64,000 bases of DNA from Dehalococcoidia bacterium (lineage in GTDB: Bacteria; Chloroflexota; Dehalococcoidia; Bin125), in assembly GCA_965263065.1 (NCBI GenBank), contig CBDHGH010000003.1:1796537-1860536 (forward strand), in the 5' to 3' direction. The notes beneath the pieces were generated by a model that was not told the origin of the DNA, ran no database searches, and saw nothing but the letters and a program-made list of their open reading frames with translations. Position 1 is the first letter of the stretch; each line of letters begins with the position of its first letter. The position numbers were made by a program, and so were the translations under genes. Positions 6,296 to 48,192 of the stretch are shown in pieces.

Positions 6296-7003
6296 TCAGC
6301 CCGCGGCGGCGGCCTCCGCCGCCAAACCGCTCGTCCCGACCCGCTCCTGGACGCGCGCCGCGAGGTCGCAGACGGCCTGCGCCTCGACGCCGCCCGGCGG
6401 CTCGCTGTCGCCCGAGACGACGCAACTCAGCCGGCCGCTGGACCAGCGCACCTCGATCTTGCGCTGCACTTCACTCGCGCCCGCCATCCGCGACCACTGC
6501 CGCACCGACCCGGCGAAGCCCAGCCCGTGGCCGTCGACGTCGCTGACGCGGATCGATGCGCCGTCGTCCGACGGCGCCGGTGAGCCAGCGGAATCGGCCG
6601 CCCCCTCCGCGTCCTCGAACAGGCTCAGGTCCACCGTCAGCAGGCGCTGCTGCGTGCGCGCGCGCAGGCTGAAGTTGAGCGCGACGTCGATTACCTCCCC
6701 GTACGACCGCGGGTCGCGGAAGGCCTGCCGGTAGCCGATCACCCGGCCCAGCTCGTCGAGCTCGTCGAGCGTGGCGCGCTCGTCGGGGCTCTGATAGGCC
6801 AGCCGCTCGTTCGTCAGCGGACCGCGATAGTCCACGTGGTAGCCGCCGGGGAACTCCGCCGGGGCCAGCGCCAGCGCCGCCAGCTCCGCGACGTGCGGCA
6901 GCGCCCGCTCGTGGGCGGCCTGCCGGCGGCGCAGCGCCCATTGCAGCGCACTGACGCCCACCAGCAGCACGATCAGGATGATTCCAACGACCAGGTACGT
7001 CAT
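6296..7003 (-). CDS. hypothetical membrane-anchored protein
   Basis: N-terminal TM helix (MTYLVVGIILIVLLVGVSAL) followed by a soluble domain. No family recognised. Coding-like composition. Confidence 0.45.
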   Translation of the reverse strand: MTYLVVGIILIVLLVGVSALQWALRRRQAAHERALPHVAELAALALAPAEFPGGYHVDYRGPLTNERLAYQSPDERATLDELDELGRVIGYRQAFRDPRSYGEVIDVALNFSLRARTQQRLLTVDLSLFEDAEGAADSAGSPAPSDDGASIRVSDVDGHGLGFAGSVRQWSRMAGASEVQRKIEVRWSSGRLSCVVSGDSEPPGGVEAQAVCDLAARVQERVGTSGLAAEAAAAG

Positions 7004-7106
7004 CTCGGCACTCTCCCGGCGATTCTCGAACTCCGGTCCGCGCCTCCGCGGCGACGGCCCCGTCCGGCATCGTACGCGACGCGGCGCTCTGCGCGGGTGG
7101 CGGCGG

Positions 7107-9077
7107 TCAGTAGGCCTCGGACGCCCCCGCGATGATGTCCTCGACCACGGTGGGGTCGGCCAGCGTCGTCACGTCGCCGACGTTCTCCGGCTCGCCCTCC
7201 GCGACCTTGCGCAGGATGCGCCGCATGATCTTGCCCGACCGCGTCTTCGGCAGCCCCAGCCGCACGAACTGCAGCTTGTCCGGCGTCGCGATGGGCCCGA
7301 TCACCGTCCGCACCGCCTGACGCATGGCCCGCGCCAACTCCGCCGACGGCACGGCCCCCTCGGTCAGGTGCACGTAGGCGTAGATGCCCACGCCCTTGAC
7401 GTCGTGCGGGTAGCCCACGACGGCCGCCTCGGCGCAGGCCGGGTGCTGCACCAGCGCCCCCTCGACCTCGGCCGTGCCGATGCGATGGCCGGAGACGTTG
7501 AGCACGTCGTCGACGCGGCCGGTCAGCCAGTAGTAGCCGTCGCGGTCGCGGTAGGCGCCGTCGCCGGTGAAGTACTTGCCCGGGTACTGGCTGAGGTAGG
7601 TCTGGATGAAGCGCTCGTGGTCGCCGTAGATCGTGCGCATCATGCCCGGCCACGAGGCCGCCATGCACAGCAGCCCGCTGACGTTGTTGCCCTCGATCTC
7701 GCGCCCCTCCGGGTCGACCAGCACCGGCTGCACGCCGAAGAACGGGAACGACGCCGAGCCCGGCTTCATCGTGATCGCGCCGGGCAGGCCGGTGATCATG
7801 TGCCCGCCCGTCTCCGTCTGCCAGTACGTATCGACGATCGCCGCCCGCCCCTCGCCGACGACGTTGAAGTACCAGCGCCAGGCCTCCGGGTTGATCGGCT
7901 CCCCCACCGAGCCCAGCACCCGCAGGCTCGTGCGCTTGTAGCGCGTGACGTGTTCGTTGCCCTCGCGCGCGATCGCGCGGATGGCCGTCGGCGCCGTGTA
8001 GAAGATGGTGATCCCCAGCCGGTCGACCATGTCCCAGTAGCGCCCGGCGTCGGGGTAGGTGGGGATCGACTCGAACATCACGCTGGTCGCGCCGTTCGCC
8101 AGCGGGCCGTAGACGATGTAGCTGTGCCCCGTCACCCAGCCGATGTCGGCCGCGCAGCAGTAGATGTCGTCCTCGCGCAGGTCGAAGACGTACTTGTGCG
8201 TCATCGTCGCGAAGAGCAGGTAGCCCGCCTGCGTGTGCAGCACGCCCTTCGGCTTCCCCGTCGAGCCCGACGTGTAGAGGATGAACAGCGGGTCCTCGGC
8301 GTCCATCGAGACCGGCTCGCAGGCCGAGTTCTCCGACGCCAGCGCGTCGTGCCACCAGACGTCGCGGCCGGCCTGCATCGGCACGCTGCCGTCGGCCCGC
8401 TGATACACGATCACGAAGCGCACCGAGTCGGTCTGCTCGAGCGCCGCGTCGACGTTCGCCTTCAGCGGCACGACGCGGCCGCCGCGCCGCCCCTCGTCCT
8501 GCGTGATCACCGCCGCGCAGGCGGAGTCGGCGATCCGATCCGCGATCGACTGCGCGCTGAAGCCGCCGAAGATCACCGAGTGCACCGCGCCGATGCGCGC
8601 GCAGGCCAGCATCGCGACGGCCAGCTCGGGCACCATGCCCATGTAGATCGCGACCCGCTCGCCCTTGCCGATGCCGCGCCCGCGCAGCGCGTTCGCCATG
8701 CGGCAGACCTGCTCGTGCAACTCGGCGTAGCTCACGCGGCGGTTGTCGCCCGGCTCGTCGCCCTCCCAGAGCAGCGCCGTCTTGTCGCCCCGCTGCGCCA
8801 GGTGCCGATCGAGGCAGTTGGCGCTAACGTTCAGCCGCCCGCCCAGGAACCAGCCGATGCGCCCGCCGGCCAGGTCCTCGTCGACCACCGTCTCGAACGG
8901 CGCCATCCAGTCGAGCAGCGACTCCGCCTGCTCGCGCCAGAAGCCGTCGCGGTCTTGCAGGCTGCGGGCGTACATCGCGGCGTAGGCCTCGGTGCTCGTC
9001 AGCAGCGCGCCGTCGCGAGCGGCGGGCGGCGGGGCGTAGCGTTCCTCGGTCGGCAGCGCGGACTCGGCGGTGGTCAT
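7107..9077 (-). CDS. acs: acetyl-coenzyme A synthetase (AMP-forming)
   Basis: Has [12 protein letters not shown] and the conserved Acs core, and WREQAE near the N-terminus. Start chosen at MTTAESALP (ATG near 9077) rather than the upstream listed start at 9203. Confidence 0.9.
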
Positions 9078-15667: not shown

Positions 15668-15884
15668 AGAACAGGCCCCATTGCTGGGGCCGTATGCGGA
15701 CGAAAACGATATGTCTGTTGCGGCCGACAGCCAAGGCTACGGGCCATGTACGTGCGGCCCGACGAGCCGGCCGCTGGCATCCTACCAGCGACCCCGCCGC
15801 CCCGTCAAACCGGCTACCCCCGCTCGACCTCCACGCGCCCGAGCGACCCGTCCGCCGGCAGCAACGACTGCAGCGTCCCGCCGT
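15668..15884. repeat. direct repeat copy 1 (217 bp, about 90% identical to 16458..16674), with a decayed copy of the nuoG-like 3' end
   Basis: Aligns base-for-base with the 3' end plus downstream flank of the nuoG-like gene. The minus strand here reads MHGGTLQSLLPADGSLGRVEVERG*, a pseudo C-terminus of that gene. An internal GGCCCCATTGCTGGGGCC hairpin is also present. Confidence 0.7.
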
Positions 15885-15892
15885 GCATGACT

Positions 15893-16384
15893 CTAGCTCG
15901 GGTCCATCACCCGGACGGCGATCGCGTTCGACCGGAGGACGGAGCGATGGTCGCGAGCGATCGCGTTGAGGACCAACGTCTCTCCAACGCGCACATGGGC
16001 GTCCGGCTCGTGCGCTCCGAAGAAGAATGAATCTCTCTCGAAGCCCTCCACGCGCCAGACCTCCGGTACATGATCGCCTCGAACTTCCGCGATCGTGTGG
16101 TGCCACAGCAACTTGCACCGGCGCCGGCGCACCTCGAAGCGCAGATCCTCAAGATGAGTCACCGGTGCTTTGCTCGTGACTGTGACTTTGATGGTGCCGA
16201 TGATCGTCAAGTAACGGTCCTTCGGCGTCGGCGCGGCATAGATCGGCACGTTCGGGTGACGGTTGTGGCGCTTCTCTACCGCTTCGATGTGGATGCGTGG
16301 CTTCTCATGCTGCCCACTGTTCCAGCGCTCGACCGCCCAACGGAAGAGTGAAAGCGGTGCTAGGAGCAGGCCCAACCATTCCAT
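15893..16384 (-). CDS. hypothetical protein, 163 aa, N-terminal TM anchor, lower-GC insert
   Basis: MEWLGLLLAPLSLFRWAV... followed by a soluble domain with no family I can recognise. The body is visibly less GC-rich (about 58% by eye) than its surroundings. It sits exactly between the two 217-bp direct repeats. Confidence 0.5.
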   Translation of the reverse strand: MEWLGLLLAPLSLFRWAVERWNSGQHEKPRIHIEAVEKRHNRHPNVPIYAAPTPKDRYLTIIGTIKVTVTSKAPVTHLEDLRFEVRRRRCKLLWHHTIAEVRGDHVPEVWRVEGFERDSFFFGAHEPDAHVRVGETLVLNAIARDHRSVLRSNAIAVRVMDPS

Positions 16385-16457: not shown

Positions 16458-16674
16458 AGAACAGGCCCCATTGCTGGGGCCATATGCGGACGAAAACAAT
16501 ATCTGCGTTGTGGCGGGCCGCCGAAGCTGCGGGCCATGTACATGTGGCCCGACGAGCCGGCCGCTGGCATCGTATCAGCGCGTGAGATGACCCGTCAAAC
16601 CGACTACCCCCGCTCGACCTCCACGCGCCCGAGCGACCCGTCCGCCGGCAGCAGCGACTGCACCGCCCCGCCGT
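16458..16674. repeat. direct repeat copy 2 (contiguous with the authentic 3' end of the nuoG-like gene)
   Basis: Same 217-bp unit as 15668..15884. It covers the last roughly 23 codons of the 860-aa gene plus about 145 bp of its downstream flank. Confidence 0.7.
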
Positions 16675-22268: not shown

Positions 22269-22670
22269 TCAGTCCTCCGCGACAACCGTGAAGGGGACGG
22301 TGGCGACGAGTTCGTAGCCCACGTGGAGACAGAACTCGTAGTCACCGAATTCATCAATCGCGAGGTCCGGGATCCGGCAGATGAAGCCTGCGATATCGCG
22401 GTCGCCCGGGGACGGTCGCGTGAACTGAGCCGTCGTGCGCGTTATGGCGAATGTGTCATCGGGGCCGAGGAGCCGGAACTCGACATCCTTCCGCCCCGCC
22501 TCGTCGACCGAGTACGTGACCCCGATCACGAGGGTCATTGTTGGGATCACCGGGCTCCGTCGGGTGACCGGAATGGTCCTGATCGGGAAGCCCTCGATCG
22601 TCAGTCGGTCGCTGGCGGCTGCGTCCTCCGGCGTGACGGCTGCGCAGAGGAAGGCGAATTGCGATTCCAT
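22269..22670 (-). CDS. hypothetical protein (133 aa), lower-GC islet
   Basis: Coding-like composition, no recognisable family. Its first 20 codons overlap out of frame with the upstream 59-aa repeat-module ORF, so the true start may be the internal ATG near 22538. Confidence 0.4.
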   Translation of the reverse strand: MESQFAFLCAAVTPEDAAASDRLTIEGFPIRTIPVTRRSPVIPTMTLVIGVTYSVDEAGRKDVEFRLLGPDDTFAITRTTAQFTRPSPGDRDIAGFICRIPDLAIDEFGDYEFCLHVGYELVATVPFTVVAED

Positions 22671-22790
22671 TCCTCACGCTCCTCGGGGCTCAGAATCCGG
22701 AGAGTGACGGTCTTGAACTCCATCCCGCCATATGTCGCGGTCGATTCGGCCGGCTCGGACGGCTGAGAGTCAGTGGTCATGGCTGCCGGG
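22610..22790 (-). CDS. small repeat-module protein (59 aa; MTTDSQPSEPAES...EEREEWNRN...PPATD)
   Basis: Below the ORF-track size cutoff. Same N-terminus (MTTDSQPSE), central EEREEW motif and C-terminus (PPATD*) as the modules of the adjacent 107-aa protein. Confidence 0.35.
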
Positions 22791-22844
22791 CTCCTATTCG
22801 TGGTCCCATCCTACACGGAAGCAGCAGGGCAAATGCGGCACGCG

Positions 22845-23168
22845 TCAGTCGGTCGCCGGCGGCGGCTCATTCCGATCTGACTCGTCCCCAGGGGAAGGCG
22901 GATTGCGATCCCATTCCTCGCGCTCCGCGGGGGTGAATAGCCGGACCGGGCCGATCCTCACGAACTTGCCGAAGCCGAACTTCGCGGTCGATTTGGACTG
23001 CTCGGGTGGCGGAGAGTCGGTGGTCGGCGGCAAGGAAGACGGATTGCGGTCCAGTTCCTCGCGCTCCGCGGGGGTGAATAGCCGGACCGGGCCGACCCTC
23101 ACGAACCGGCCGTAGCCGAACTTCGCGGTCGAGTCGGGCTGCTCGGACGGCTGAGAGTCGGTGGTCAT
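22845..23168 (-). CDS. tandem-repeat small protein (107 aa; two copies of a 47-aa module)
   Basis: MTTDSQPSEQPDSTAKFGYGRFVRVGPVRLFTPAEREELDRNP, then STAKFGFGKFVRIGPVRLFTPAEREEWDRNP, then ...PPATD*. The underlying DNA has about 145-bp tandem repeats spanning 22870-23170. Confidence 0.45.
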   Translation of the reverse strand: MTTDSQPSEQPDSTAKFGYGRFVRVGPVRLFTPAEREELDRNPSSLPPTTDSPPPEQSKSTAKFGFGKFVRIGPVRLFTPAEREEWDRNPPSPGDESDRNEPPPATD

Positions 23169-23198
23169 GACAGCCGGACTCCTGTTCCTGGCGCCAGC

Positions 23199-23714
23199 CT
23201 ACACCGAAGAAGCAGCGTTCGGCGCGGCGACGCGCTGCAGCGCCAGCATCGTCTCGATGTCGCGCTCGTGCAGCGAGACGAGCACGTCCTCGACGCTGAT
23301 CGTGCCCCGGAAGGGGTGCGTCCCCCGCCGCGCCAGCGACCGGTCCGACAGCCCCCACAGCAGCCCGCACGTCTCGTCGCGCGACTGCCCGTAGATGCGC
23401 GCCAGCTGCCGGACCTCGACCGCCTCCGCGCCCGTCGCCAGCCACTCCGCCGGGTGCAGCCTCAGCTCCTCGCGACCGCGCAGCAGCTGCTCCAGATGCC
23501 AGCCGCCGGCCCGCTCCTGCACGGCCAGCTCCCACGCGATCTCGAGCACCTCCGCCGCCGCCCCCGCCGGCCGATCGCCCCGCGCCGCGACGAACAGCGC
23601 CTCCTGCACCTCGCCGCCGCCCTCGCGCAGCGCCTTCAGCAGCCAACTCGCTCGATCCACCGTCGCGCCTCCCCTGCCGCGCAGGCTCCCGGCGGAGCGC
23701 GACCATTCTGACAC
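23199..23714 (-). CDS. hypothetical protein (171 aa)
   Basis: Preferred over the antisense Arg/Pro-rich ORF 23268..23711. Weak resemblance in PAEWLATGAEAVEVRQLARIYG to Xre/ParS-type antitoxin C-domains. Not assignable. Confidence 0.4.
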   Translation of the reverse strand: MSEWSRSAGSLRGRGGATVDRASWLLKALREGGGEVQEALFVAARGDRPAGAAAEVLEIAWELAVQERAGGWHLEQLLRGREELRLHPAEWLATGAEAVEVRQLARIYGQSRDETCGLLWGLSDRSLARRGTHPFRGTISVEDVLVSLHERDIETMLALQRVAAPNAASSV

Positions 23715-25541: not shown

Positions 25542-25646
25542 GGGCGTCCAGTCCCCCCGCTCACATCTCGCGAGCTCCCTCGGGGAGCGTGGCCTGATTG
25601 TGCCGGCTGGGGCCGCCGGTCGCAGCGAACTGGGGCGCCGGGGGGC

Positions 25647-28600
25647 TCAGGGCGCGTTGGGGGGCTCGAAGAGGCTCCGGGCGATGGCGATGACGGCGTC
25701 GACGTTGCTTCCACGAAGGCTTTTTGTTTTCCCAAGAATCGCGTACTCGGCCTCGGTGGACGCGTCGTAGATCCAGACCGTCACCGGGAATAAGTCACTA
25801 TGGTTCGGACCTGACGGGCTGTACGCCACTCGCGCCGGCCGCCCGGCGATGACCCTCGTCTCGTACACGCCCCGGCCGTTCCGCCAGGATGCCTCTCGCG
25901 GGTGGCCTCGGTAGTCCGCGTAGTAGCCAAAAACTGTGAAGGCGCTCCCGCCTCTTTCTGTTGCGAAGTCCGCCCAGTACCCGTAGGCGGGACCACTGAC
26001 GTCGCCGCTGACCGCCCATGCGAACGTCCAGCCTGCGGGGAGCGCCGGGTCACGCCAGTAGGGAAGCTGTCGCGCCTCCGCGAGATTCGTGGTGTAGGCA
26101 GGGTTCGCGTAGGAGTCGCCCGGGAGCGGGTACGTGTCGGGCTCTTCCACCGCGCCGGTCCAACCTGCGGGGACGAGTTGGTATGGACCGTGGCGCACGG
26201 GCGAGGTCAGGCTCGGGCCGCCCAGGTCGGGCAGCGGGCCGAACTGCAGGCTGGCCGTCGCGGTCGGGGAGATGGCGCCGCTGCAGCCTGTGAAGGCGTA
26301 GGTCATCCAGGCCACGGCCAGCAGCTTGCGCGGGGGGTCGCCGGCCGGGTCGTCCTTGACGTCGGTCACCGTGTAGCGCACGAAGCAATCGCTGGCTTGG
26401 CGCCACTCGAAAAGGTCGCCCGCCTCCACGAGGTCCAAGAGGTCCGCCTGCGAGGCACCGGCACTGTCGTGCTTGTGGATCACGAGGCCGGTCGTGCTGC
26501 CGTCGCGCAGGCCCTCGTAGGTCGTGATCATCGTGGTGAGGTCGTCGGGGTCGGTGAGGAAGGCGTAGTCGCCGTCGTCTGTGACGCTCCCGGTCGTCGT
26601 GGGGGCGCCGTAGGTCAGGGTCGTCGAGGGCAGATCGCAGTCCGCCAGGCCGAGCGCGGCGAAGTCGTTGGAGCGCATGCCCGCCAACTCACGCGGCAGG
26701 CAGCCGGTGAAGCGGTTGTCCGCCAAATACACGATCAGGTGGGGCGGATTCCTCAGTTCCACCGGGATCGGCCCGCTCAACTGATTCCCGCGCAGGTCCA
26801 GCACCACCAGCCCCGCAAGGTTCCCCAGCGCCGCCGGGATCGGCCCGCTCAACTGATTCCCGCCCAGGTCCAGCACCTCCAGCGCCGCGAGGTTCCCCAG
26901 CGCCGCCGGGATCGGCCCGCTCAACTGATTCCCGCCCAGGTCCAGCACCTCCAGCGCCGCGAGGTTCCCCAGTTCGGGTGGAATCGCGCCCGTCAGGCGG
27001 TTCTCGTGGAGCGCCAGCCGCTGCAACTGCGCGAGGTTCCCCAACTCCGGCGGGATCGGCCCCGTCAGCCGGTTGCCGTCAAGCTGCAAGTACGTCAGGC
27101 GCGCCAGGTCGCCCAACTCGGGCGGGATCGCACCCGTCAGCCGGTTCTCGCCGAGCGTTAGGGACCCCAACTGCGCGAGGTTGCCCAACTCGGGCGGGAT
27201 CGGCCCCGTCAGCCGGTTGGCGGAGAGCGTCAGGTACTTCAACTGCGCGAGGTTCCCCAACTCCGGCGGGATCGCGCCCCACAGCAGGTTGCCGTGGAGG
27301 TACAGGACCTCCAGGCGCGCGAGGGCGCCCAGCTCCGGCGGGATTGGCCCCGTCAGCCGGTTGTCGTAGAGCCTCAGGGTTTTCAGGCGCGTGAGGGCGC
27401 CCAACTCCGGCGGGATCGGCCCCATCAGCCGGTTCTCGTGGAGCGCCAGCCGCTGCAACTGCGCTAGGTTCCCCAACTCCGATGGGATCGCACCCGTCAG
27501 CCGGTTCTCGCGGAGCACAAGGGACTCCAACTGCGCGAGGTTGCCCAACTCGGGCGGGATCGCGCCCGTCAGTTGGTTGTTGGGGAGGTGCAGGCTCCCC
27601 AGGCGCGCGAGGGCGCCCAATTCCGGCGGGATCGAGCCCGTCAGGCGGTTCCCGTTGAGGTTCAGGACCCCCAGGCGCGCGAGGGCGCCCAACTCCCGCG
27701 GGATCGCGCCCGTCAGCCGGTTGCCGTGCAGCCACAGCCGCTGCAACTGCGCGAGGTTGCCCAACTCCGGCGGGATCGGCCCCGTCAGCCGGTTGTTGTT
27801 GAGCAACAGGCTCTCCAGGCGCGCGAGGGCGCCCAACTCCCGCGGGATCGCGCCCGTCAGCCGGTTGTTGTACAGCCGCAGGATCCTCAACTGCGCGAGG
27901 TTGCCCAACTCCGGCGGGATCGGCCCCGTCAGCCCGTTCCCGTTGAGCCACAACCACTGCAACCGCGCGAGGGCGCCCAACGCCGGCGGGATTGTGCCCG
28001 TCAGCGCGTGCCCCTCCAGGTCCAACGCCGTCACGTGCGGCGGCGTCCCGCCCACGGTGACCCCGTCCCAGGCCGTGATCCCCCGGTCCGCGCTCCAGTC
28101 GAGCGCCGCCGTGCCGCGCAGCCTGCCCCTCGCCGCCAGCAGGATCGCGCAGTCGGCGACCAAGCCGGGGTTATTCGCCGCGTCGGGCACGGCCGCCCCG
28201 GCCGCGCAGGGCCCGGGCGGCGGCGGCGCCGGCGCACCGCCGGCCGCGTCGCGGCCCGGCTGGATGTTCTCCGGCGTCCAGGTGAAGGTGCGAGTCCCCC
28301 GCGTGGTGATCGGCCCGCTGGTGCAGCCGGTATAGGCGTAGGAGTAGACCTGAATCGTCAGCAGCGTGCGCGGCGGATCGCCCGCCGGGTCGGCGTGGAC
28401 TTCATCGACGTGGTAACGCACCCAGCAGTCGGCAGCCTCGCGCCACTCCACCAGGTCGCCCGCCTCCACCTGGGCGTAGAAGACCGCCTGCGAGGCGCCG
28501 GAGATGTCGTTCTGGTGCAGCACCAAGCCGATGCGGGTACCGGCGCGCAGCCCCTCGTAGGTGGTGATGGCGCTGGTGAGGTCGTCGGGGTCGGTGAGGA

Positions 28601-29513
28601 AGGCGTAGTCGCCATCGGTCGGGACACTGTCCGTCGTGATGGGGGGACCGTAGGTCAGGCTCTCGGACCCCAGCGGACAGGAAGCCAGGCCGAGCTGCGC
28701 CACGTCGTTGCGCTCCACCTGGGCGAGGGCGCGCAGCAGGCAGCCCGTGAGGTCGTTCTGGGAGAGAGAGAGTTCGCTTAGGGGGAGATCGGCCAGCCCG
28801 GGCGGGATCGCGCCCGTCAACTGGTTCTGCTGGAGTTGCAGGATCCTCAACTGCGCGAGGTTTCCCAGCTCCGGTGGGATCGCGCCCGTCAGCCGGTTCC
28901 AAGCGAAGTCCAGGGTCCCCAGGCGTGCGAGGTTGCCCAACTCGGCCGGGATCGCGCCCGTCAGCCGGTTCACGAACAGCGATAGCACCTCCAACCGCGC
29001 GAGGTTGCCCAACGCTGGCGGGATCCGCCCGCTGAGCTGGTTGTACCCCAGGTGCAACCGCCGCAATTGACTGAGGTCGCCCAGCGCGGCCGGGATCGTG
29101 CCCGTCAGCGCGTGCCCCTCCAGGCGCAACTCCGTCACGCGCGGCGGCGTCCCGCGCAGCGTGTCCTTCGCCGCCAGCAGGATCGCGCAGTCGGCGACCA
29201 GGCCGGGGTTGTTCGCCGCGTCGGGCACGGCCGCCCCGGTCGCGCAGGGGCCGGGCGGCGGCTCCAGAGGGACGCCGGGGGCCGCGCAGATCCGCCAGCC
29301 GACGCCGATCTCGAAGCAGGTGACCGCCGGCTCCGTGCCCTGCGCCGCCGCCGGCGCGGCGCCGGACGGCAGCAGGATCGCCGCGGCCACGCCGATCAGC
29401 AGCAGGGCCGCGAGCAGCGGCGTCACAACGACGGCGAAGCGCCTGCGGTCGGGCATCTCATCTCCGGGAACGACCGCCGCGGCGCGAAGGTTCCCGCCCG
29501 CGGCCAACCTCAC
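25647..29513 (-). CDS. large secreted/membrane-anchored leucine-rich-repeat protein (1288 aa, plant-specific-type LRRs)
   Basis: N-terminal signal/TM. Two LRR blocks (about 7 and about 20 units of LxxLxLxxNxLTGxIPPELGNLAxL), each preceded by a Cys-containing cap (CATGAAVPDAANNPGLVADCAILLAA) and followed by a duplicated roughly 170-aa domain. A unique roughly 280-aa C-terminal domain follows. Confidence 0.85.
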   Translation of the reverse strand: MRLAAGGNLRAAAVVPGDEMPDRRRFAVVVTPLLAALLLIGVAAAILLPSGAAPAAAQGTEPAVTCFEIGVGWRICAAPGVPLEPPPGPCATGAAVPDAANNPGLVADCAILLAAKDTLRGTPPRVTELRLEGHALTGTIPAALGDLSQLRRLHLGYNQLSGRIPPALGNLARLEVLSLFVNRLTGAIPAELGNLARLGTLDFAWNRLTGAIPPELGNLAQLRILQLQQNQLTGAIPPGLADLPLSELSLSQNDLTGCLLRALAQVERNDVAQLGLASCPLGSESLTYGPPITTDSVPTDGDYAFLTDPDDLTSAITTYEGLRAGTRIGLVLHQNDISGASQAVFYAQVEAGDLVEWREAADCWVRYHVDEVHADPAGDPPRTLLTIQVYSYAYTGCTSGPITTRGTRTFTWTPENIQPGRDAAGGAPAPPPPGPCAAGAAVPDAANNPGLVADCAILLAARGRLRGTAALDWSADRGITAWDGVTVGGTPPHVTALDLEGHALTGTIPPALGALARLQWLWLNGNGLTGPIPPELGNLAQLRILRLYNNRLTGAIPRELGALARLESLLLNNNRLTGPIPPELGNLAQLQRLWLHGNRLTGAIPRELGALARLGVLNLNGNRLTGSIPPELGALARLGSLHLPNNQLTGAIPPELGNLAQLESLVLRENRLTGAIPSELGNLAQLQRLALHENRLMGPIPPELGALTRLKTLRLYDNRLTGPIPPELGALARLEVLYLHGNLLWGAIPPELGNLAQLKYLTLSANRLTGPIPPELGNLAQLGSLTLGENRLTGAIPPELGDLARLTYLQLDGNRLTGPIPPELGNLAQLQRLALHENRLTGAIPPELGNLAALEVLDLGGNQLSGPIPAALGNLAALEVLDLGGNQLSGPIPAALGNLAGLVVLDLRGNQLSGPIPVELRNPPHLIVYLADNRFTGCLPRELAGMRSNDFAALGLADCDLPSTTLTYGAPTTTGSVTDDGDYAFLTDPDDLTTMITTYEGLRDGSTTGLVIHKHDSAGASQADLLDLVEAGDLFEWRQASDCFVRYTVTDVKDDPAGDPPRKLLAVAWMTYAFTGCSGAISPTATASLQFGPLPDLGGPSLTSPVRHGPYQLVPAGWTGAVEEPDTYPLPGDSYANPAYTTNLAEARQLPYWRDPALPAGWTFAWAVSGDVSGPAYGYWADFATERGGSAFTVFGYYADYRGHPREASWRNGRGVYETRVIAGRPARVAYSPSGPNHSDLFPVTVWIYDASTEAEYAILGKTKSLRGSNVDAVIAIARSLFEPPNAP

Positions 29514-29602
29514 GCGACCACCCCCGACGCAACCGCCGGCGCCTGCTATCGCGCACTACTCGCCGCCTCCCGCCTGCGAGAGCGCGTGGCCTGACCCCCA
29601 CG

Positions 29603-29704
29603 CTACTCCTCGACGACCTCCTGCTGATCGACGCGCAGCCGCAGCCCCGGCGGCATCGCGACGCCGGTCTTGGGGCTGCGCTCCGGCGGCTTGCTCGCCG
29701 CCTT
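29603..29704. repeat. degenerate direct copy of the 3' end of the downstream BtuF-like gene (about 102 bp)
   Basis: The minus strand reads ...AASKPPERSPKTGVAMPPGLRLRVDQQEVVEE*, close to the authentic C-terminus ...AASKPPERSPKTDVAMPPGLRITVQQQEVVEEE* at 30650-30754. Together the two copies bracket the esterase gene. Confidence 0.55.
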
Positions 29705-29764
29705 CGACCCCCGCCTGCGCGGCAGCGGCTACGCTGTCCCCCAAGTCAAAGGGGACCAGCAACC

Positions 29765-30628
29765 GTGACCAACCCGCCGCAGCAGCTCTCCGGCACCGAA
29801 GTCCACACGCTGCACTCGGACGCCGTCGGAGACGCGTTCGAAATCACCGTCGCCGCGCCGCCGCCCGGGACGGAGGGCCCGGTCGGGGTGGTGTACTTCA
29901 CCGACGCGACCACACGGATCGGGACCGCCGTCGAGACGGTCCGCTCGCTATCCACGATCGGGGAGATTCCGCCGCTGCTCCTGGTCGGCGTGGGCTACGC
30001 GATCGGCGGCGATTATGCCCGCTGGGTGCGCTTCCGCGCGCGGGACTTCACGCCCGGTCCCTCGTCCAACCCGGCGGAGCATGCGGCGATCGCGCCGATC
30101 GTCGGACCCGATCCGGTGGAGACGGGCGGGGCGCCGCGGTTTCTCGACTTCCTCGCGGACGAACTCCAACCCTGGGTGCGCGACCGCTATGCCGTGAGCG
30201 ACGATACGGCCTATATCGGCAACTCTCTGGGCGGGCTGTTCGGCGTCTACACCCTCTTGCACCGCCCCGCCGCGTTCCGCCGCTACATCATCGGCAGCCC
30301 CTGGCTGTGCTGGGACCCGGAGACGACCACGGCGTACGAGCCCGCCTACGCCGCCGATCACAGCGACCTCGACGCCACCGTGTTCCTCGCCGCGGGCGCG
30401 CACGAGGACGTGCTGCCCCCCGGGCTGTCCGCGCCGATGCAGGCCAACTTCGGGGCCGCCGACACCGCCGCCCATACGCGGCGCTTGGCGGAGGCGCTCG
30501 AGCAACGCCGATACCCCAGCCTCGACTTGACCTGGCGCATCTTCCCCGAGGTCACGCACTTCACCATGTTGCCGGTCCTGACCGCGCTCGGCTTGCGCGC
30601 GGTCTACGCCGACTGGCGCCGGCGCTAG
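29765..30628 (+). CDS. alpha/beta-hydrolase esterase (putative-esterase / IroE-like siderophore esterase family)
   Basis: GxSxG nucleophile elbow IGNSLGGLFGV. Fold and length match PF00756-type esterases. Confidence 0.75.
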   Translation: MTNPPQQLSGTEVHTLHSDAVGDAFEITVAAPPPGTEGPVGVVYFTDATTRIGTAVETVRSLSTIGEIPPLLLVGVGYAIGGDYARWVRFRARDFTPGPSSNPAEHAAIAPIVGPDPVETGGAPRFLDFLADELQPWVRDRYAVSDDTAYIGNSLGGLFGVYTLLHRPAAFRRYIIGSPWLCWDPETTTAYEPAYAADHSDLDATVFLAAGAHEDVLPPGLSAPMQANFGAADTAAHTRRLAEALEQRRYPSLDLTWRIFPEVTHFTMLPVLTALGLRAVYADWRRR

Positions 30629-30649
30629 GCGCGGCCCCGCCCGATCCCG

Positions 30650-31789
30650 CTACTCCTCCTCGACGACCTCCTGCTGCTGCACGGTGATCCGCAGCCCCGG
30701 CGGCATCGCGACGTCGGTCTTGGGGCTGCGCTCCGGCGGCTTGCTCGCCGCCTTGCGGGCCTTGCCCGACCGCGTCGCCGCCTTCTTCTTGGCCGCCGCC
30801 CGCTGCGCGTCGGTCAACCGCGGCCTGGCGCCCGCCGCCGCCTTTTTCCCGGCGCCCGTGCGCCCCGTGGCCGTGCCCGCCTTCTTCGACGCCGCCTTGC
30901 CGGCCGCCCCTGTCTTGCCGGCCGCTGCCGTCTTCGACGCCTTCACGGGCCGCGCCGGCGCCTTCCAGCCGGGCCGCGCCCGGTCGAACAGCTCCTCCAA
31001 CTTCGCCAGGCCCTCCTGGGCGCGGGCGCCGTACCAGGTCAGCAGGCGCCCATCGAGCAGGAAGACATGCTGCTTGCGGGCGGCCGTGATCGATTGCAGC
31101 GCCTGTAGCTCGCGCCGATGCCGCCGCCCGAATCGGTACGGCTCCGACGGCAGCAGGATCACCTCCGGATCCGCCCGCGCGATCTCCGACAGCTCGACCT
31201 GCGGATAGCGGTTGCCGCGCACGTGCGACTCGAAGACGTTCTCGCCGCCCGCCAGCCGGATCAGGTCGCCCGCGTAGGTGTCGCCCGCCGCCGCCATGAA
31301 CGGCCGGTACCAGATCGGGCAGAACACGCGCACGCGCGGGCGGTCCGCGTTCAGCGTCTCCTGCCGCTCGATCTCCTCGCTGACCAGGGCGACGATGGGA
31401 CGCACCATCGCGAAATGGAGCAGCTGCGCGATGGTCTTCAGGTCCTCCAACGCGTCGCGGGCGGTGCGCGGGTAGCCCACGTACACCTGCAGTCCGGCCG
31501 CCTCCAGCGCCGCGATGTCCTCCTCCCGGTTCTCCTCGCGATTCGCCAGCACCAGGTCCGGCGCGAGCGCCACGATCGCCGCGATGTCGGGATCCTTCGT
31601 CCCGCCGATCTTGCGGATCGCGGCCGCCTCGGCCTCGGGCTCGGTGCAGAACTTGGTGATCCCCACCAGGCGCTTCACGCCCGCCAGCTGCGCCACGCTC
31701 TCCGTCACGCTCGGCACGAGCGAGACGATGCGGTCCGGCCGCAGCGCGGTCGTGATGGTCTGGCCGCGGGAGTCCTCGGCGCTGGCCAT
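30650..31789 (-). CDS. BtuF/FhuD-like periplasmic-binding-fold protein (class III SBP) lacking a signal peptide, with Lys/Ala-rich C-terminal tail
   Basis: RIVSLVPSVTESVAQLAG...LVGIT and DPDIAAIVALAPDLVLA are typical of cobalamin/siderophore binding proteins. The C-terminal 100 aa are KA-rich (AAKKKAATRSGKARKAASK). Start taken at MASAEDSRGQ; the listed ORF extends to 31957. Confidence 0.7.
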   Translation of the reverse strand: MASAEDSRGQTITTALRPDRIVSLVPSVTESVAQLAGVKRLVGITKFCTEPEAEAAAIRKIGGTKDPDIAAIVALAPDLVLANREENREEDIAALEAAGLQVYVGYPRTARDALEDLKTIAQLLHFAMVRPIVALVSEEIERQETLNADRPRVRVFCPIWYRPFMAAAGDTYAGDLIRLAGGENVFESHVRGNRYPQVELSEIARADPEVILLPSEPYRFGRRHRRELQALQSITAARKQHVFLLDGRLLTWYGARAQEGLAKLEELFDRARPGWKAPARPVKASKTAAAGKTGAAGKAASKKAGTATGRTGAGKKAAAGARPRLTDAQRAAAKKKAATRSGKARKAASKPPERSPKTDVAMPPGLRITVQQQEVVEEE

Positions 31790-39156: not shown

Positions 39157-39306
39157 GGCTCCGGCGCCAACCCCATCCACCAGGGTCACTGTAGCGGGCA
39201 CAGGGCCCAAGCGGGTATCCGCACGGCGCTATTTGGCCAGACGCCCCGTCCCGCCCCCCAGTTCCCGGCCTCGGCGCTGGCTGGCGGCTGATGCGCCCCT
39301 GCATCT

Positions 39307-39358
39307 GAGTGCGAGGGTGTCACAGGTGATCCTGCGATCTGGCCCAGAGCCCGGCGGC
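39307..39358. repeat. 52-bp direct repeat copy 1 (pairs with 39755..39806)
   Basis: GAGTGCGAGGGTGTCACAGGTGATCCTGCGATCTGGCCCAGAGCCCGGC versus GAGTGCAAGCGTGTCACGGGCCATCCTGCGATCTTGCGCAGAGCCTGGC. Together the copies bracket the MNT/HepT' module. Confidence 0.5.
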
Positions 39359-39400
39359 GCGCTGCATGTCGTACAGGTACTTGCGAGCCTCAAGCCTCAT
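39320..39400 (-). pseudogene. truncated HepT-like (DUF86) toxin remnant, 26 codons
   Basis: MRLEARKYLYDMQRAAGLWARSQDHL*. Its ATG is embedded in the last codons of the MNT gene (typical MNT-HepT overlap), but it terminates after 26 aa, inside direct repeat copy 1. Confidence 0.3.
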
Positions 39401-39713
39401 AGACGGCTGTCCTCGTTCGCTCCACCGATTCGCGGAAGTAGGGATTCCGGATGGCGGAATCCACCACCAAGTCCACGGACCGCCCAAAGAGCCCCTGGAG
39501 CGCGTCGAGCAGCCCGAAGTAGGCGTCCGCGTAGCCGACGAGCGCCGCCGGCTGGAACTCGACCAGGAAGTCCAGGTCGCTCGCGTCCGGATCGTCCCTG
39601 CCGGTTGCGACCGACCCGAACAGGTCGAGCCTCTGGACGCCGTACCTGAGACAGAGGCGTCGCAACTCGTCGGTCTGGTCGTCAACCGTAGGGATCATGC
39701 CAGTTTCGCCCAT
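39390..39713 (-). CDS. nucleotidyltransferase-domain protein (MNT/MntA-type antitoxin of HepT-MNT modules)
   Basis: GSVATGRDDPDASDLDFLVEF is the minimal nucleotidyltransferase (GS...D.D) signature. Confidence 0.75.
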   Translation of the reverse strand: MGETGMIPTVDDQTDELRRLCLRYGVQRLDLFGSVATGRDDPDASDLDFLVEFQPAALVGYADAYFGLLDALQGLFGRSVDLVVDSAIRNPYFRESVERTRTAVYEA

Positions 39714-39841
39714 TCGTTCCGTACCCTAGCAGGGCGGCGATGGACCCCTGAACCGGAGTGCAAGCGTGTCACGGGCCATCCTGCGATCTTGCGCAGAGCC
39801 TGGCGACACTGGCGCGTGCGAATGCTTCGTGCGCAGCCTCT

Positions 39842-40285
39842 CTACCGCCCCGTCGACCCGAAGCCGCCCCCACCGCGCTCGGTCTCGCCCAGCGCCTCGA
39901 CCTCCTCCACCGCCAGCAGCGCCACCGGCGCGACCACCAGCTGCGCGATCCGATCCCCTTGCCGCACGCGGAAGCGCCCCTCGCCGGACCAGCGCATGTT
40001 CACCAGCACCTCGCCGCGGTAGTCCGCGTCCACCGTCCCGAAGGCCACCACGACCCCCCGCCGCGACAGCCCCGAGCGCGGCCGCACCTGCACCTCATAC
40101 CCCGGCGGCGTCTCGATCGCCAGGCCCGTCGGGATCAGCCGCGGCGTCGCGTCGAGCATCGCCTGGCCGTCGGGGGCGCCGAAGTCGGCGAACACGTCCA
40201 GCCCCGAGCTGTGCGGCGTCGCCCGACGGGGCAGCCGTGCGGTCTCGCGCAGTCGCAGCACGCGCAGCGCCGGCGGCGTCAGCAC
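39842..40285 (-). CDS. dut: dUTP diphosphatase
   Basis: dUTPase motifs (AGLDV, RSGL, GTVDADYRGE) and a C-terminal GGFGSTG motif V. Confidence 0.85.
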   Translation of the reverse strand: MLTPPALRVLRLRETARLPRRATPHSSGLDVFADFGAPDGQAMLDATPRLIPTGLAIETPPGYEVQVRPRSGLSRRGVVVAFGTVDADYRGEVLVNMRWSGEGRFRVRQGDRIAQLVVAPVALLAVEEVEALGETERGGGGFGSTGR

Positions 40286-41344: not shown

Positions 41345-41617
41345 CTAGGTGAGCCGGAGAATGGCGGCCAGGATGGCGGCGATGGCGACACCCAAGCTGA
41401 GTATCCGCCAAGTCTGCTGGTGGATCGCCCGCTCAATGTCGCCGCGCAACTCTAAGCGCAGACGGTCGATGTCGCCGCGCAAGTCTGCGCCGAGGCGGTC
41501 GATGTCGCCGCGCAAGTCTGCGCCGAGGCGGTCGTTGTCGCCGCGCAACTCTAAGCGCACGCGTTCGAGGTCACCCTGCGTCGCCGGGTCGGAGTCTGAG
41601 GCCGAGTGGGCTACCAT
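41345..41617 (-). CDS. DUF1640-like small coiled-coil protein with C-terminal TM anchor; contains 4 x 33-bp in-frame tandem repeats
   Basis: ...LRGDIDRLGADLRGDIDRLGADLRGDIDRL...QQTWRILSLGVAIAAILAAILRLT*. 33-bp repeats at 41437..41568. Confidence 0.55.
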   Translation of the reverse strand: MVAHSASDSDPATQGDLERVRLELRGDNDRLGADLRGDIDRLGADLRGDIDRLRLELRGDIERAIHQQTWRILSLGVAIAAILAAILRLT

Positions 41618-45303: not shown

Positions 45304-45450
45304 GCGCGCTCCCGCCCCGCGTCGCCGCCCGCGGGTCCCCCGTCGAGTGATGCAAGTATAGGCCGACGGGTGCGCCGTATCGACAGGCCCGATGGGATGC
45401 GCCGGCATCGGACGCAGGCCCGACGGCGGCGCGGAACCTCACCCCCTAAC

Positions 45451-45480
45451 CCCCTCTCCAGCTGAAGCGCTGGAGAGGGG
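45451..45480. repeat. GC-rich palindromic element CCCTCTCC...GGAGAGGG (same family as 48201..48222 and 48266..48287)
   Basis: 12-bp perfect stem CCCCTCTCCAGC / GCTGGAGAGGGG with a 6-nt loop. Related CTCTCC/GGAGAG hairpins flank the substrate-binding gene on both sides. Confidence 0.4.
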
Positions 45481-45664
45481 GGACCGGAAGGGCAATGGGG
45501 GCGAGAGTCCGGGGTCGGCGCCACCGCCTAGCCCCCTCTCCCCTCCGACCCCCCCGCTCCGTTGCTCGGCAATGGAGCGGGGGTTCGGGGGCGAGGTTCC
45601 CCCGCGCGATCGCACGCCGGAACCCCACGAGTGACACAGGGGGGGGTTCCAACAGCGCCCGAAT

Positions 45665-45740
45665 CCGAAAAATTCGGTGGATAACCCCATAATTTCCTTC
45701 CTATTTGACATAACGGGGGGGGGGGGTGCACTCTTATAAT
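45665..45740 (+). promoter_or_regulatory. AT-richer regulatory region: CCGAAAAATTCGG palindrome, TTGACA ... G12 tract ... TATAAT
   Basis: Perfect inverted repeat at 45665-45677. TTGACA at 45705-45710 and TATAAT at 45735-45740, separated by 24 nt that include an uninterrupted run of 12 G (45715-45726). This is the only strongly AT-enriched segment near the ABC operon start. Confidence 0.35.
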
Positions 45741-45813
45741 GTGCGATACTGTGCGTGCTCACGCACCGAGCGATCCCACAAAGGGACAGCCGGGGACCGG
45801 AAGGGAACATGTG

Positions 45814-48192
45814 ATGAGCCGCCGGAACTATTGGACGACCCTGCGACAGCGGAAGATCTCACGCCGCACCATGTTGGGAGCCAGCGCGAAGGCTGGCGTT
45901 GGAGCAGCCGGCCTCGCCCTGGTCGGCTGCGGCGACGACGACGATGACGCCGCACCGGCCGCCGTCGATACGTCGGCGATCGACGCCGCGGCGGGCGACG
46001 CGAGCGCCGCGGCCAGCGCCGCGGGTGAGGCATCGGCCGCCGCGTCCGAGGCGTCGGCCGCTGCGTCCGAAGCCGCCGCCGCGGCTTCGCAGGCGGCCGA
46101 TGCCGCGGCCGACGCCGCCGCCTTGGCCGCCGAGGCGGCCGAGTCGGAGGACGCCGCCAACGCGGCCGCCGCCGCGGAAGCCGCGGCAGCCGCGGCGGCC
46201 CAGGCCGCCGACGCCGCTGGCGCTGCCGGTGACGCCGCCGCCGCGGCCGTGGCGGACGCCGCCGCGCAGGCCGCCGAGGCTGCCGCCCAGGCCGCCCGCG
46301 ACGCGGCCGCCGCGGTCGAGGCCGGCACGGCCACGGCCGAGGCCGCCCAGGCCGCCATCGACGCGGCCGCCGAAGCGGCCGCTGCGGCTGCGGCTGCCGC
46401 CGGGGAGGCCTCCGCCGCCGCCGGCGCGGCCGCCGCCACCGCCCAGGAGACCGCCGAAGCGGCGGCCGAGACCGCCGCCGCGGCCGTCGCCGCGGCCGAA
46501 GAGGCCGCCGACGCGGCCCAGGAGGCCGCCGAGAGCGCGGCCATGGCGGCGGAGGACGACATGCCCGCGGCCGGCGGGCCGGTGTACGGCGGCAAGATCG
46601 TCCGCACTGCCAAAATCGGCATCGAAGAGGGCTGGAACCCGGCCCGCGCCCTCTCGGGCATTGCTGAACACAATTTCCTCCAGTACATCTACGATTATGT
46701 GCTGGGGTTCACCGCCGATAACGGCTCGGGGAAAGCGGAGCTGGCCGAGAGCTGGGAGACCCCGGACGACGTCACCTACCTCTTCAACTTCGCGCCCGGG
46801 CGCGCCCTGTTCCAGGACGGCGCGCCGGTGGACGCCAACGCGATGCAGGCGAACATGGAGTTCCGGCAGACCGACGCCGAAGCCTCCCTCAACGCCCGCA
46901 CCAATTCGGGTATCGCCAACGCGGCATCCTTCGGCGCGGTGGACGACGTCACCTGGCGGATGGTCAACAACGAACCGGTCGGGCCCACCCTCGCGGCGTT
47001 CTGGACCCCCGGACTCTCGGGCTCGTTGATCTCGCCGAACGCCTTCGAAACCGCCCATGAACATCCCGTCGGCGCCGGACCGGCGCGCCACCTGGAGTAT
47101 CGCGTCGGGGAGTACTGGCTGGGGGAGAAGTGGGACGGCTACTGGGATAACGAGCACGTCTACGCCGACCAGCTGGAGACCCGGATCGTTCCCGACGACA
47201 ACAACGCCTGGGCCCAATTCCTCGACGGGGAGGTCTCCTATCAACGTGTCGCCGGTGCCATGACCGACGAACTGGCGGCGGAGTTGGAGGCCGACGGGTT
47301 CCAGGCGGCCCGGGGGATCGACTTTGCTTGGAGCGCCCAGTGGTTCAATATCAATCCGGCGTCCGAGGGCTTCAACATGTTCCGCGACCCCCGCCTGCGC
47401 TGGGCGATCGGCCTCAGCGTGGACCGGGACGTCGTCAACGATCTGGCCGAGCACGGCCAGGGCAAGCCCTCCGTGTGCAACACCAGTACGGAGAGCTGGG
47501 CCATCCGGGAGGGCGCGAACTACTACGACCCGCCCGACCTGGCGAAAGCCGCCCAGCTGCGGGACGCCGCGGGCTTCGGGGACGACAACCCCGTCACCGG
47601 CACCATGCTGTGCTTCACGGAGAGTCGCGCGCTCCGCGGGGCGACGGCGGTCTTCTCCCAACTGCAGCTAAACGGCTGGTCGGGGTTGAACCTCCTGGAA
47701 GGCGCTCAGGGGCCGATCCTGGACGTCTACCGCTCGGGAATCGACTGGATCACCGCCAGCTTCCCCTGGGATTCGCCGTTCGACCCGGACGCGACGATGA
47801 GCCCGTCCATGGAGCTTATCTTCAAGAACTGGCTGTACGGCAGTCCCGAGGGCGGCTCGGGGACCGGGCGCGCCAGCCTGGCGGACTACCCGAACGACCA
47901 AGTGCTGCAGGGCCTCGCGGAGACCGAAGCGTACACCACGGCGGCCACGAAATTCGCCAGCCAGGAGGATCGCATCGAACCCTACGACAAGGCCTTCGCC
48001 AGTTCCGGCGACGGCCACTCCTGGTCCGACCCCGACATCCAAGGACACCGCTGGACGTACCACTGGATTCAGCATTCGGTGGCCTATGGCGCCCAGGGGA
48101 ACCTCGGAGGGTTCCAGCTGAGACCCGTCGATGGCCAGACGGCCTCGTCCAGCGGCGGGCACGGCTACAAGGGGTTGTGGTTCAACGCCTAG
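45814..48192 (+). CDS. ABC transporter substrate-binding lipoprotein, family 5 (peptide/nickel type), with about 215-aa Ala/Glu-rich low-complexity linker
   Basis: Tat-like signal (SRRTMLGASAKAGVGAAGLALVGCG, lipobox). A long poly-Ala linker (AAEAAAAA...), then the family-5 SBP body. RBS GGAAGGGA before ATG 45814. Confidence 0.85.
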   Translation: MSRRNYWTTLRQRKISRRTMLGASAKAGVGAAGLALVGCGDDDDDAAPAAVDTSAIDAAAGDASAAASAAGEASAAASEASAAASEAAAAASQAADAAADAAALAAEAAESEDAANAAAAAEAAAAAAAQAADAAGAAGDAAAAAVADAAAQAAEAAAQAARDAAAAVEAGTATAEAAQAAIDAAAEAAAAAAAAAGEASAAAGAAAATAQETAEAAAETAAAAVAAAEEAADAAQEAAESAAMAAEDDMPAAGGPVYGGKIVRTAKIGIEEGWNPARALSGIAEHNFLQYIYDYVLGFTADNGSGKAELAESWETPDDVTYLFNFAPGRALFQDGAPVDANAMQANMEFRQTDAEASLNARTNSGIANAASFGAVDDVTWRMVNNEPVGPTLAAFWTPGLSGSLISPNAFETAHEHPVGAGPARHLEYRVGEYWLGEKWDGYWDNEHVYADQLETRIVPDDNNAWAQFLDGEVSYQRVAGAMTDELAAELEADGFQAARGIDFAWSAQWFNINPASEGFNMFRDPRLRWAIGLSVDRDVVNDLAEHGQGKPSVCNTSTESWAIREGANYYDPPDLAKAAQLRDAAGFGDDNPVTGTMLCFTESRALRGATAVFSQLQLNGWSGLNLLEGAQGPILDVYRSGIDWITASFPWDSPFDPDATMSPSMELIFKNWLYGSPEGGSGTGRASLADYPNDQVLQGLAETEAYTTAATKFASQEDRIEPYDKAFASSGDGHSWSDPDIQGHRWTYHWIQHSVAYGAQGNLGGFQLRPVDGQTASSSGGHGYKGLWFNA

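Follow-up and report, generated by a model that had tools for sequence, protein, structure and literature searches.

A probable recombination scar at the 3' end of a BtuF-like gene in a Dehalococcoidia genome

Our analysis of a 64,000-nt stretch of the genome of a Dehalococcoidia bacterium (contig CBDHGH010000003.1; the whole stretch is called "the window" here, and the piece shown is 29,514-31,789) concerns a gene for a siderophore esterase-like protein that is bracketed by two direct copies, A and B, of the 3' end of its convergent TroA/BtuF-like neighbour. We consider it probable that this repeat is the scar of one non-site-specific recombination, in which two alternative alleles of the hypervariable slot just past the BtuF-like gene were fused. 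If so, the locus is a natural example, resolved to the nucleotide, of how illegitimate recombination anchored on one side builds a gene neighbourhood without mobile-element machinery, here in an uncultured high-G+C Dehalococcoidia. The surviving traces are a displaced gene end, a truncated permease stump, 3 nt of microhomology at the joint and both parental slot configurations in relatives.

Two unequal copies of one gene end

A repeat search gives an ungapped direct repeat of 116 nt between 29589-29704 and 30639-30754 (87% identity, offset 1050 nt). Its coding parts lie on the minus strand; copy B (30650..30754) holds the last 34 codons and the stop codon of the BtuF-like gene, and copy A (29603..29704) holds 33 codons and a stop. 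The two match at 94 of 102 positions, with 8 of the 102 mismatched and one 3-nt gap that amounts to a codon indel. There are exact runs of 40, 25 and 24 nt, and the 40-mer, CGGTCTTGGGGCTGCGCTCCGGCGGCTTGCTCGCCGCCTT, present at 29665-29704 and 30715-30754, has an expected count of 0 (100 shuffles). The pairwise alignment that the first-pass annotation of this DNA had proposed as a check thus gives a significant match, and its description of the esterase gene (29765-30628) as bracketed by a duplicated gene end, at 29603-29704 and 30650-30754, is borne out. It had also taken copy B for the true C-terminal coding end of the BtuF-like gene, and the 379-amino-acid protein does end there (...KTDVAMPPGLRITVQQQEVVEEE*). 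Copy A, which it called a near-identical pseudo C-terminus upstream of the esterase, stop codon included, reads ...KAASKPPERSPKTGVAMPPGLRLRVDQQEVVEE* on the minus strand; because its frame has a stop codon upstream, and so no open reading frame (ORF), it is not a gene. It is a displaced, non-coding relic, a pseudogene fragment whose annotation as a gene or as an att site is not warranted.

The differences between the copies are strongly clustered, with seven of the eight mismatches inside 12 nt (P ~2e-5 under random placement). Copy B carries there the patch ATC ACC GTG CAG (ITVQ), and copy A the ancestral-type codons CTG CGC GTC GAT; no template from which the 12-nt ITVQ patch could have been copied is present elsewhere in the window. 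Over their first 66 nt the copies agree except for one change private to copy A. This part includes the codons for KPPERSPK, which are common to A and B and are not present in the relatives L002 or L003, so that they are specific to the lineage of the window.

Comparison with related loci gives the two copies a polarity. In L003, whose BtuF-like gene is 82.5% identical in nucleotide sequence to that of the window, a large gene follows directly after 143 nt and there is no esterase; L004 (80.9%) also has no esterase. The BtuF end, spacer and large-gene start of L003 are collinear with copy A and 29278-29602 of the window, and its BtuF body is collinear with the window up to 30629; these two window blocks overlap in L003 coordinates at 7045-7167, and this overlap is the repeat. 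The patch of copy A, as CTG CGC GTC GAK (LRVE/D), is the state found in L003, L004 and the BtuF-like proteins P0006, P0007, P0008 and P0010, and more loosely in P0012. The ITVQ patch of copy B occurs only in the esterase-bearing P0001-P0004 and L002. These alignments show copy A to be of the ancestral type and displaced from its gene, and the patch of copy B to be derived and linked to the esterase. Because copy A is also collinear with the native downstream DNA, the repeats are the product of the event and not its substrate.

The window and two further strain-level assemblies, L001 and L089 (BtuF-like genes 97.4% and 98.8% identical to that of the window), are independent and come from different samples, and in both relatives the BtuF-like gene is followed, as in the window, by the esterase, the relic copy A and the large gene. 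Between the window and L089 copy B does not differ; L001 departs from them by a single synonymous change, and the patch itself recurs in L002. The private substitutions of copy A number one in the window and two in L001, and L089 has lost 36 nt of it in a clean deletion between short direct repeats. This is the behaviour predicted of a displaced copy that is non-functional and evolving neutrally.

A truncated permease at the esterase junction

The interval from copy A to the esterase contains CTTCGACCCCCGCCTGCGCGGCAGCGGCTA (29702-29731), which matches the 3' end of an intact permease gene of L086 at 28 of 30 nt where 0 such matches are expected. That permease (...DIFDPRLRGSR*) is encoded immediately upstream of an esterase homologue. 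In the window only a 3'-end remnant of the ABC permease gene (BPD_transp_1 family; 29702..29733, plus strand) is left, translating as FDPRLRGSG and now without its stop codon. With L086, blastn homology runs from precisely 29702 to the esterase stop codon, the point at which homology with L085 and L088 stops as well. The triplet CTT at 29702-29704 is common to copy A and the permease remnant, so the junction has 3 nt of microhomology, and the joint runs from BtuF codon -34 (antisense) to about codon -10 of the permease. The remnant is followed by the native spacer upstream of the esterase (29734..29764, plus strand), which contains the ribosome-binding site AAAGGGGA and aligns with the esterase upstream regions of L002, L085, L086 and L087.

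In all four of these relatives an SBP_bac_5 gene precedes the esterase homologue on the same strand, and in L086 two permease genes separate them. Elsewhere, then, the esterase closes an SBP_bac_5(-permease-permease)-esterase operon, and in the lineage of the window it has been orphaned. Since the junction holds a truncated permease end and the esterase ends an operon elsewhere, the joint cut through an operon, and this edge is not a cassette boundary.

The esterase of L088 (248-1170) was compared with those of L085 (5956-6864) and the window (29717-30628). L088 is 97% identical to L085 over 7 kb, and its esterase gene is a mosaic in which the first ~200 nt are 100% of the L085-paralogue type and the remainder is nearer the window, or BtuF-locus, type. 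This suggests gene conversion between esterase paralogues, and because the gene is a mosaic of two paralogue types, ectopic recombination is demonstrably active in this group. Cluster membership indicates that one genome of the group probably carries both paralogues.

Hairpins that are rich in G+C and resemble repetitive extragenic palindromes (CCCCCTCTCC-N12-GGAGAGGGGG) recur beside SBP_bac_5 genes in several genomes. Such sites are at 45450-45481 and 45530-45600 in the window, at ~8077-8223 and 10631-10697 in L002, and upstream of the esterase in L085 and L087. Those of the window lie upstream of an SBP_bac_5 paralogue (45739-48192), and a near-consensus TTGACA...TATAAT promoter is at ~45706-45740.

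Arrangements of the slot in relatives

L002, whose BtuF-like gene is 90.0% identical to that of the window, has its esterase 21 nt past the BtuF stop codon, followed by SBP_bac_5 genes, and has no copy A. Its alignment with the window is unbroken from 37850 to 29747, and that of L003 from 37876 to 30629. Relative to L002, window positions 25543-29746 (the large gene, the spacer, copy A and the permease stump) take the place of the SBP genes. The 21-nt spacer between the convergent stop codons of the window (30629..30649) is identical in L002, and the homology of L003 also reaches 30629; this spacer is what remains of the native DNA beyond BtuF, and it forms the older junction of the esterase unit. 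Relatives thus have configurations of both parental types, BtuF followed by the large gene in L003 and BtuF-esterase-SBP_bac_5 without the relic in L002.

The first-pass annotation had suggested a search for empty sites. Esterase-less loci do exist in L003 and L004, but only in relatives whose BtuF-like genes have diverged by 17-19%; among close strains there is no presence/absence polymorphism, all three strain-level assemblies carrying the structure. As evidence against its own reading it had named an ancient, fixed duplication, and what we find comes near to that, with the structure in three of three strains and copy A decaying. Sliding identity along the left flank shows no step at the BtuF 3' end. 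Scans of Joint Genome Institute (JGI) metagenomes left the junction 26-mer unmatched and gave nothing closer than 61% to the BtuF profile, and the GTDB species representatives include only the genome of L003 and more distant relatives.

The large gene (25647..29513, minus strand; probable start ATG 29456) encodes a secreted protein with matches to the Pfam leucine-rich repeat (LRR) families, and is the hypervariable gene that fills the slot after BtuF. Its N- and C-termini are common to L001, L003 and L089, and its body differs even between ~97%-identical strains. The spacer at 29514..29602 is the original BtuF-like/LRR intergenic spacer, still joined to copy A and collinear with L003 7147-7290. 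The lengths of the LRR gene are 1288 aa in the window (25647-29513), 750 aa in L001 (8334-10586) and 956 aa in L003 (7290-10160); no gene is called in the corresponding stretch of L089 (8008-11109), despite flanks that are ~97% identical. The window gene contains 72-nt LRR units and internal duplications spaced 1038 nt (28100-28248 and 29138-29286) and 2040 nt (26319-26618 and 28359-28658).

A model for the fusion event

The process that we infer behind the observed anatomy and polarity, the permease stump, the empty and alternative alleles of relatives, the decay of copy A and the absence of a recombinase is homology-facilitated illegitimate recombination (HFIR), or an equivalent event with homology on one side, the partners being closely related genomes. 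One allele, like that of L003, would have had the BtuF-like gene, a spacer of ~90-140 nt and the large LRR-type gene; the other, like that of L002, the BtuF-like gene, 21 nt and the convergent operon of SBP_bac_5, (permease, permease) and esterase genes. In an ancestor of the species-level lineage of the window, DNA of one allele would have been joined to the other, on one side through ordinary homology and on the other by an illegitimate join at CTT between codon -10 of the last permease gene and codon -34 of the BtuF-like gene. The product would then read BtuF with the 3' end of the second allele (copy B), esterase, 30-nt permease stump, the intact but now dead 3' end of the first allele (copy A), native spacer and LRR gene, and only those recombinants would have survived in which BtuF, the esterase and the LRR promoter region were intact. 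The two flanks have the appearance that such a scar should have, one being continuous with relatives through ordinary homology and the other a novel joint of unrelated sequences with short microhomology.

The esterase genes give a dS of 0.17 against L002 and of 0.04-0.06 among the strains, and copy A had accumulated a single change by the time the three strains diverged. Because copies A and B share lineage-specific codons and copy A had changed so little by then, the event, or the last conversion between A and B, is much younger than the split from L002. The esterase side itself predates that split, since its 21-nt junction and the ITVQ patch are also those of L002. Both alleles were probably present at one time in a single recombining population, and the concentration of seven of the eight mismatches within 12 nt, together with the shared KPPERSPK, fits this. 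The mosaic esterase of L088 and the second bracketed locus (below), unoccupied in L090, also speak for the account given here.

Several points weigh against this account. Both flanks of the window are nearer to L002 than to L003, so that there is no flank discordance by which donor and recipient allele could be told apart, and the microhomology at the junction is only 3 nt. Neither exact parent has been seen: among the relatives compared, no allele has an intact permease beside BtuF and no esterase-less strain combines KPPERSPK with LRLRVE, so that both parental alleles are reconstructed from relatives at a greater distance. Later gene conversion could equally account for the identity of A and B in their first 66 nt, in which case the event could be older than argued here. 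Finally, we know of no natural transformation or other route of DNA uptake in this uncultured Dehalococcoidia lineage, which is represented by metagenome assemblies alone.

As a unit the structure appears to do nothing today. Its two copies could, as a by-product, support rare RecA-dependent loss of the esterase; such excision by homologous recombination between the copies is physically possible, and we found no evidence of it.

Alternative explanations

The first-pass annotation had read the bracketed esterase as a cassette, inserted or excised by recombination between the duplicated 3' ends. Recombination did add DNA at the 3' end of the BtuF-like gene, but there is no cassette, the repeats did not mediate the event and nothing is active; the permease stump, the lack of a recombinase, the decaying copy A and the presence of the structure in all three strains weigh against the proposed exchange. 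An active integrative cassette of the e14/icd type, with the repeats as attL and attR of a mobilisable unit at the BtuF-like 3' end, would mirror the architecture of icd/icdC in E. coli K-12, and the window has two loci, possibly with a weaker third (below), at which accessory genes are bracketed in this way. We nonetheless regard it as very improbable and largely refuted. No integrase or transposase was found among the neighbours within ~6 kb; the insert consists of the esterase and the permease stump only and encodes no recombinase, and no integrase or excisionase lies in or near it. One boundary cuts a permease gene, the relic is decaying (the 36-nt deletion of L089), and the arrangement is unchanged in the three independent strain-level assemblies. 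The esterase is elsewhere an ordinary operon gene without these repeats, and the repeats of the esterase and nuoG-like loci are unrelated in sequence. Direct repeats that bracket a gene are thus insufficient on their own to call a cassette. An integron gene cassette was also considered and rejected: an inverted-repeat scan gave no attC-like symmetric element at the boundaries, there is no integrase, a truncated gene stands at one boundary, and the repeat consists of coding sequence from the 3' end of the gene next to it. Still less credible is a pair formed by the template repeat (TR) and variable repeat (VR) of a diversity-generating retroelement, or an artefact of assembly. A 3'-terminal coding repeat with a non-coding copy of ~100 nt nearby does look superficially like a VR and its TR, but no reverse transcriptase was found among the neighbours, the mismatches on one strand (A/C, C/G, G/C and G/T) are not adenine-specific, and copy B, the candidate VR, is invariant among strains, which rules such a pair out. 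The recurrence of the arrangement in L001 and L089, assembled independently from different samples, means that it is not an assembly artefact.

Two other histories lead to the same end product. A circle of ~1050 bp, closed at the joint between the permease stump and BtuF codon -34 and carrying the BtuF 3' end and the esterase, could have entered by a single homologous (Campbell-type) crossover in the ~120-nt BtuF 3' end and so given both direct copies. A single crossover of this kind yields exactly the topology seen, direct repeats spaced 1050 nt, and if it fell just upstream of the 12-nt patch it would explain both the near-identical 5' parts and the allele-specific patches. It needs two rare steps, illegitimate circularisation and then recombination on ~66-120 nt of homology, and no circle or replicon function is evident; its end product is indistinguishable, with present data, from that of the one-step model, and we think it unlikely. 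Alternatively, insertion of the whole SBP-permease-esterase operon at the 3' region of BtuF may be older than the divergence from L002 and have duplicated the gene end; later deletions would have taken the SBP and permease genes in the lineage of the window and the relic and LRR gene in that of L002, with gene conversion maintaining identity between the 5' parts of A and B. The 21-nt BtuF/esterase junction and ITVQ patch that L002 has in identical form are expected from such a history, and gene conversion between paralogous esterases is seen in L088. Against this, at least four events plus conversion would be required, a deletion end-point would have to coincide with the end of the A/B homology, and the single change in copy A at the strain split is far too few for neutral sequence as old as the L002 split (dS ~0.17) unless conversion had reset it; this older insertion with trimming seems to us improbable. 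We therefore prefer the fusion of two slot alleles in a single recombination.

Genes and spacers of the locus

The BtuF-like gene (30650..31789, minus strand) encodes a "helical backbone metal receptor" protein of 379 aa (Pfam Peripla_BP_2; NCBIfam TroA_like, NF038402), identical to the database protein P0001; the mechanically called ORF extends to 31957. The protein lacks a signal peptide; its tail, of ~100 aa, is K/A-rich, and its acidic C-terminus is conserved. In P0001-P0012 the tail (30650-31000 in the window, minus strand) ends in the motif PKTDV.MPPGL....QQEVVEE, and because this motif is kept even in relatives that are only ~61% identical, the odd C-terminus appears to be functional. 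Three "variants" of the protein, P0005, P0009 and P0011, shift to an alternative reading frame midway; they come from low-coverage long-read contigs, and the switches look like frameshift errors rather than real isoforms.

The esterase gene (29765..30628, plus strand) is intact and encodes 287 aa with a match to PF00756 (E = 2e-15). Its best relative of solved structure is the bacillibactin esterase of PDB entry 2qm0 (BES; E = 2.4e-19), followed by IroE-like and Fes entries, and the GNSLG of its translation fits the GxSxG nucleophile motif of serine esterases; by fold family and motif the product is a predicted siderophore esterase of the BesA/IroE type. The ratio of nonsynonymous to synonymous substitution rates (dN/dS) is 0.08-0.29 against L089 and L001, and the gene is under purifying selection among the strains. 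Its G+C content of 70-74% is the same as that of its surroundings, which rules out a foreign base composition. Exact database look-ups of the window esterase and of P0001 returned no record, and a promoter scan of 29400-30800 found no sigma-70-like site. The whole window has 0 tRNAs and 0 Rfam matches at the gathering score, so that no known RNA or tRNA was found as a target.

Other bracketed genes and repeats in the window

The first-pass annotation had pointed to the same architecture at a nuoG-like locus, and it is indeed there: 15668-15884 and 16458-16674 (217 nt, 87% identity, minus strand) bracket an ORF of 163 aa (15893..16384, minus strand) that has no Pfam match and ~60% G+C where its flanks have ~74%. 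The copy at 16458..16674 comprises the last 70 nt of the NuoG/formate-dehydrogenase-like gene and ~145 nt downstream of it, and the copy at 15668..15884 is a displaced duplicate of this gene end and downstream unit. There are at least 11 matches to the nuoG-like gene among relatives, of which one, L090, is usable; its nuoG-like stop codon and the convergent VIT1 gene are 254 nt apart (6822-7077), with neither the ORF nor the duplicate. The 145-nt unit after the nuoG-like stop codon (16458-16603 and 15668-15813, minus strand) contains, by eye, a promoter-like TTGACG-N18-TACGAT (TAGGAT in the other copy) and terminates with the hairpin GGCCCCAGCAATGGGGCC and then a T-rich stretch; it matches no Rfam family at the gathering score and could be a small RNA gene or leader.

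A direct repeat of 80 nt (39277-39356 and 39726-39805, 76% identity) brackets an ORF of 107 aa (39390-39713, minus strand) which by eye resembles a minimal nucleotidyltransferase and lies just downstream of a dUTPase-looking ORF (39842-40285, minus strand). This locus (39277-39805) may be a third, weaker case of the bracketed pattern, beside the two clear ones (BtuF/esterase and nuoG-like/163-aa ORF) within the 64 kb. It is doubtful that the lineage repeatedly captures accessory genes by an integrase-free process that duplicates the end, or the downstream unit, of an adjacent conserved gene. Were it true, this would be a lineage-specific and mechanistically distinct form of gene gain, for example by preferential one-ended recombination of small fragments or circles, and the cases would be more than isolated accidents; an unusual density of such scars, if found in the genome, could inform on how these organisms acquire DNA.

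Other repeats also occur in the window. The cluster of direct repeats at 22599-23215 (93-133 nt, 75-89% identical) consists of tandem paralogous small ORFs beside a DUF6941 gene (22269-22670), and its copy number differs from those in L003 and L090. At 41430-41594 there is a 33-nt tandem repeat array of about five units, in which overlapping 66-nt windows are 71-88% identical.

Comparison with known systems

The event proposed here is of a known kind, of which this is a new example, and as a single locus it is ordinary. HFIR has been described in Acinetobacter, S. pneumoniae and P. stutzeri (de Vries & Wackernagel 2002, PMC122324; Prudhomme et al. 2002, PMC122325; as cited in PMC5361080 and PMC3240628). 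The locus shares with it one seamless homologous side, a joint of a few bases of microhomology that cuts through unrelated genes on the other side, a short insert (~1 kb) and the lack of a recombinase or defined ends. It differs in that HFIR is experimentally defined, whereas the mechanism at this locus is read from a fossil, and in that the joint is inside the anchor gene, upstream of the end of homology, so that recipient DNA has been duplicated and not deleted.

C-terminal displacement, for which HFIR has been proposed as a cause, is known from rhs loci and from effector-immunity loci of the type VI secretion system (Jackson et al. 2009, PMC2935791; Kirchberger et al. 2017, PMC5361080). There, as in the window, an incoming segment gives the resident gene a new 3' end and the old end is moved downstream as an orphan. 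Those are toxin systems, in which selection acts on the displaced tips and immunity genes and these build up in arrays; in the window the protein is metal-receptor-like, the two tips differ in only four codons and the orphan tip is simply decaying.

In E. coli K-12 carrying prophage e14, icd ends in a 165-nt 3' end borne by the element, and the displaced icdC is identical to it at 152 of 165 nt. Both there and in the window, direct repeats of the target gene's 3' end flank the insert, with the functional copy at the near edge of the insert and the pseudogene displaced. The e14 element carries intE and xisE and integrates site-specifically, whereas the unit in the window has no recombinase and a truncated permease gene at one edge.

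Replacement-type flexible genomic islands are exchanged by homologous recombination in the flanking core genes. The slot resembles them in being fixed between conserved genes and holding, in related genomes, the LRR gene, the SBP-esterase operon or both; it departs from them in that the alleles of the window have been fused by an illegitimate joint and not cleanly swapped.

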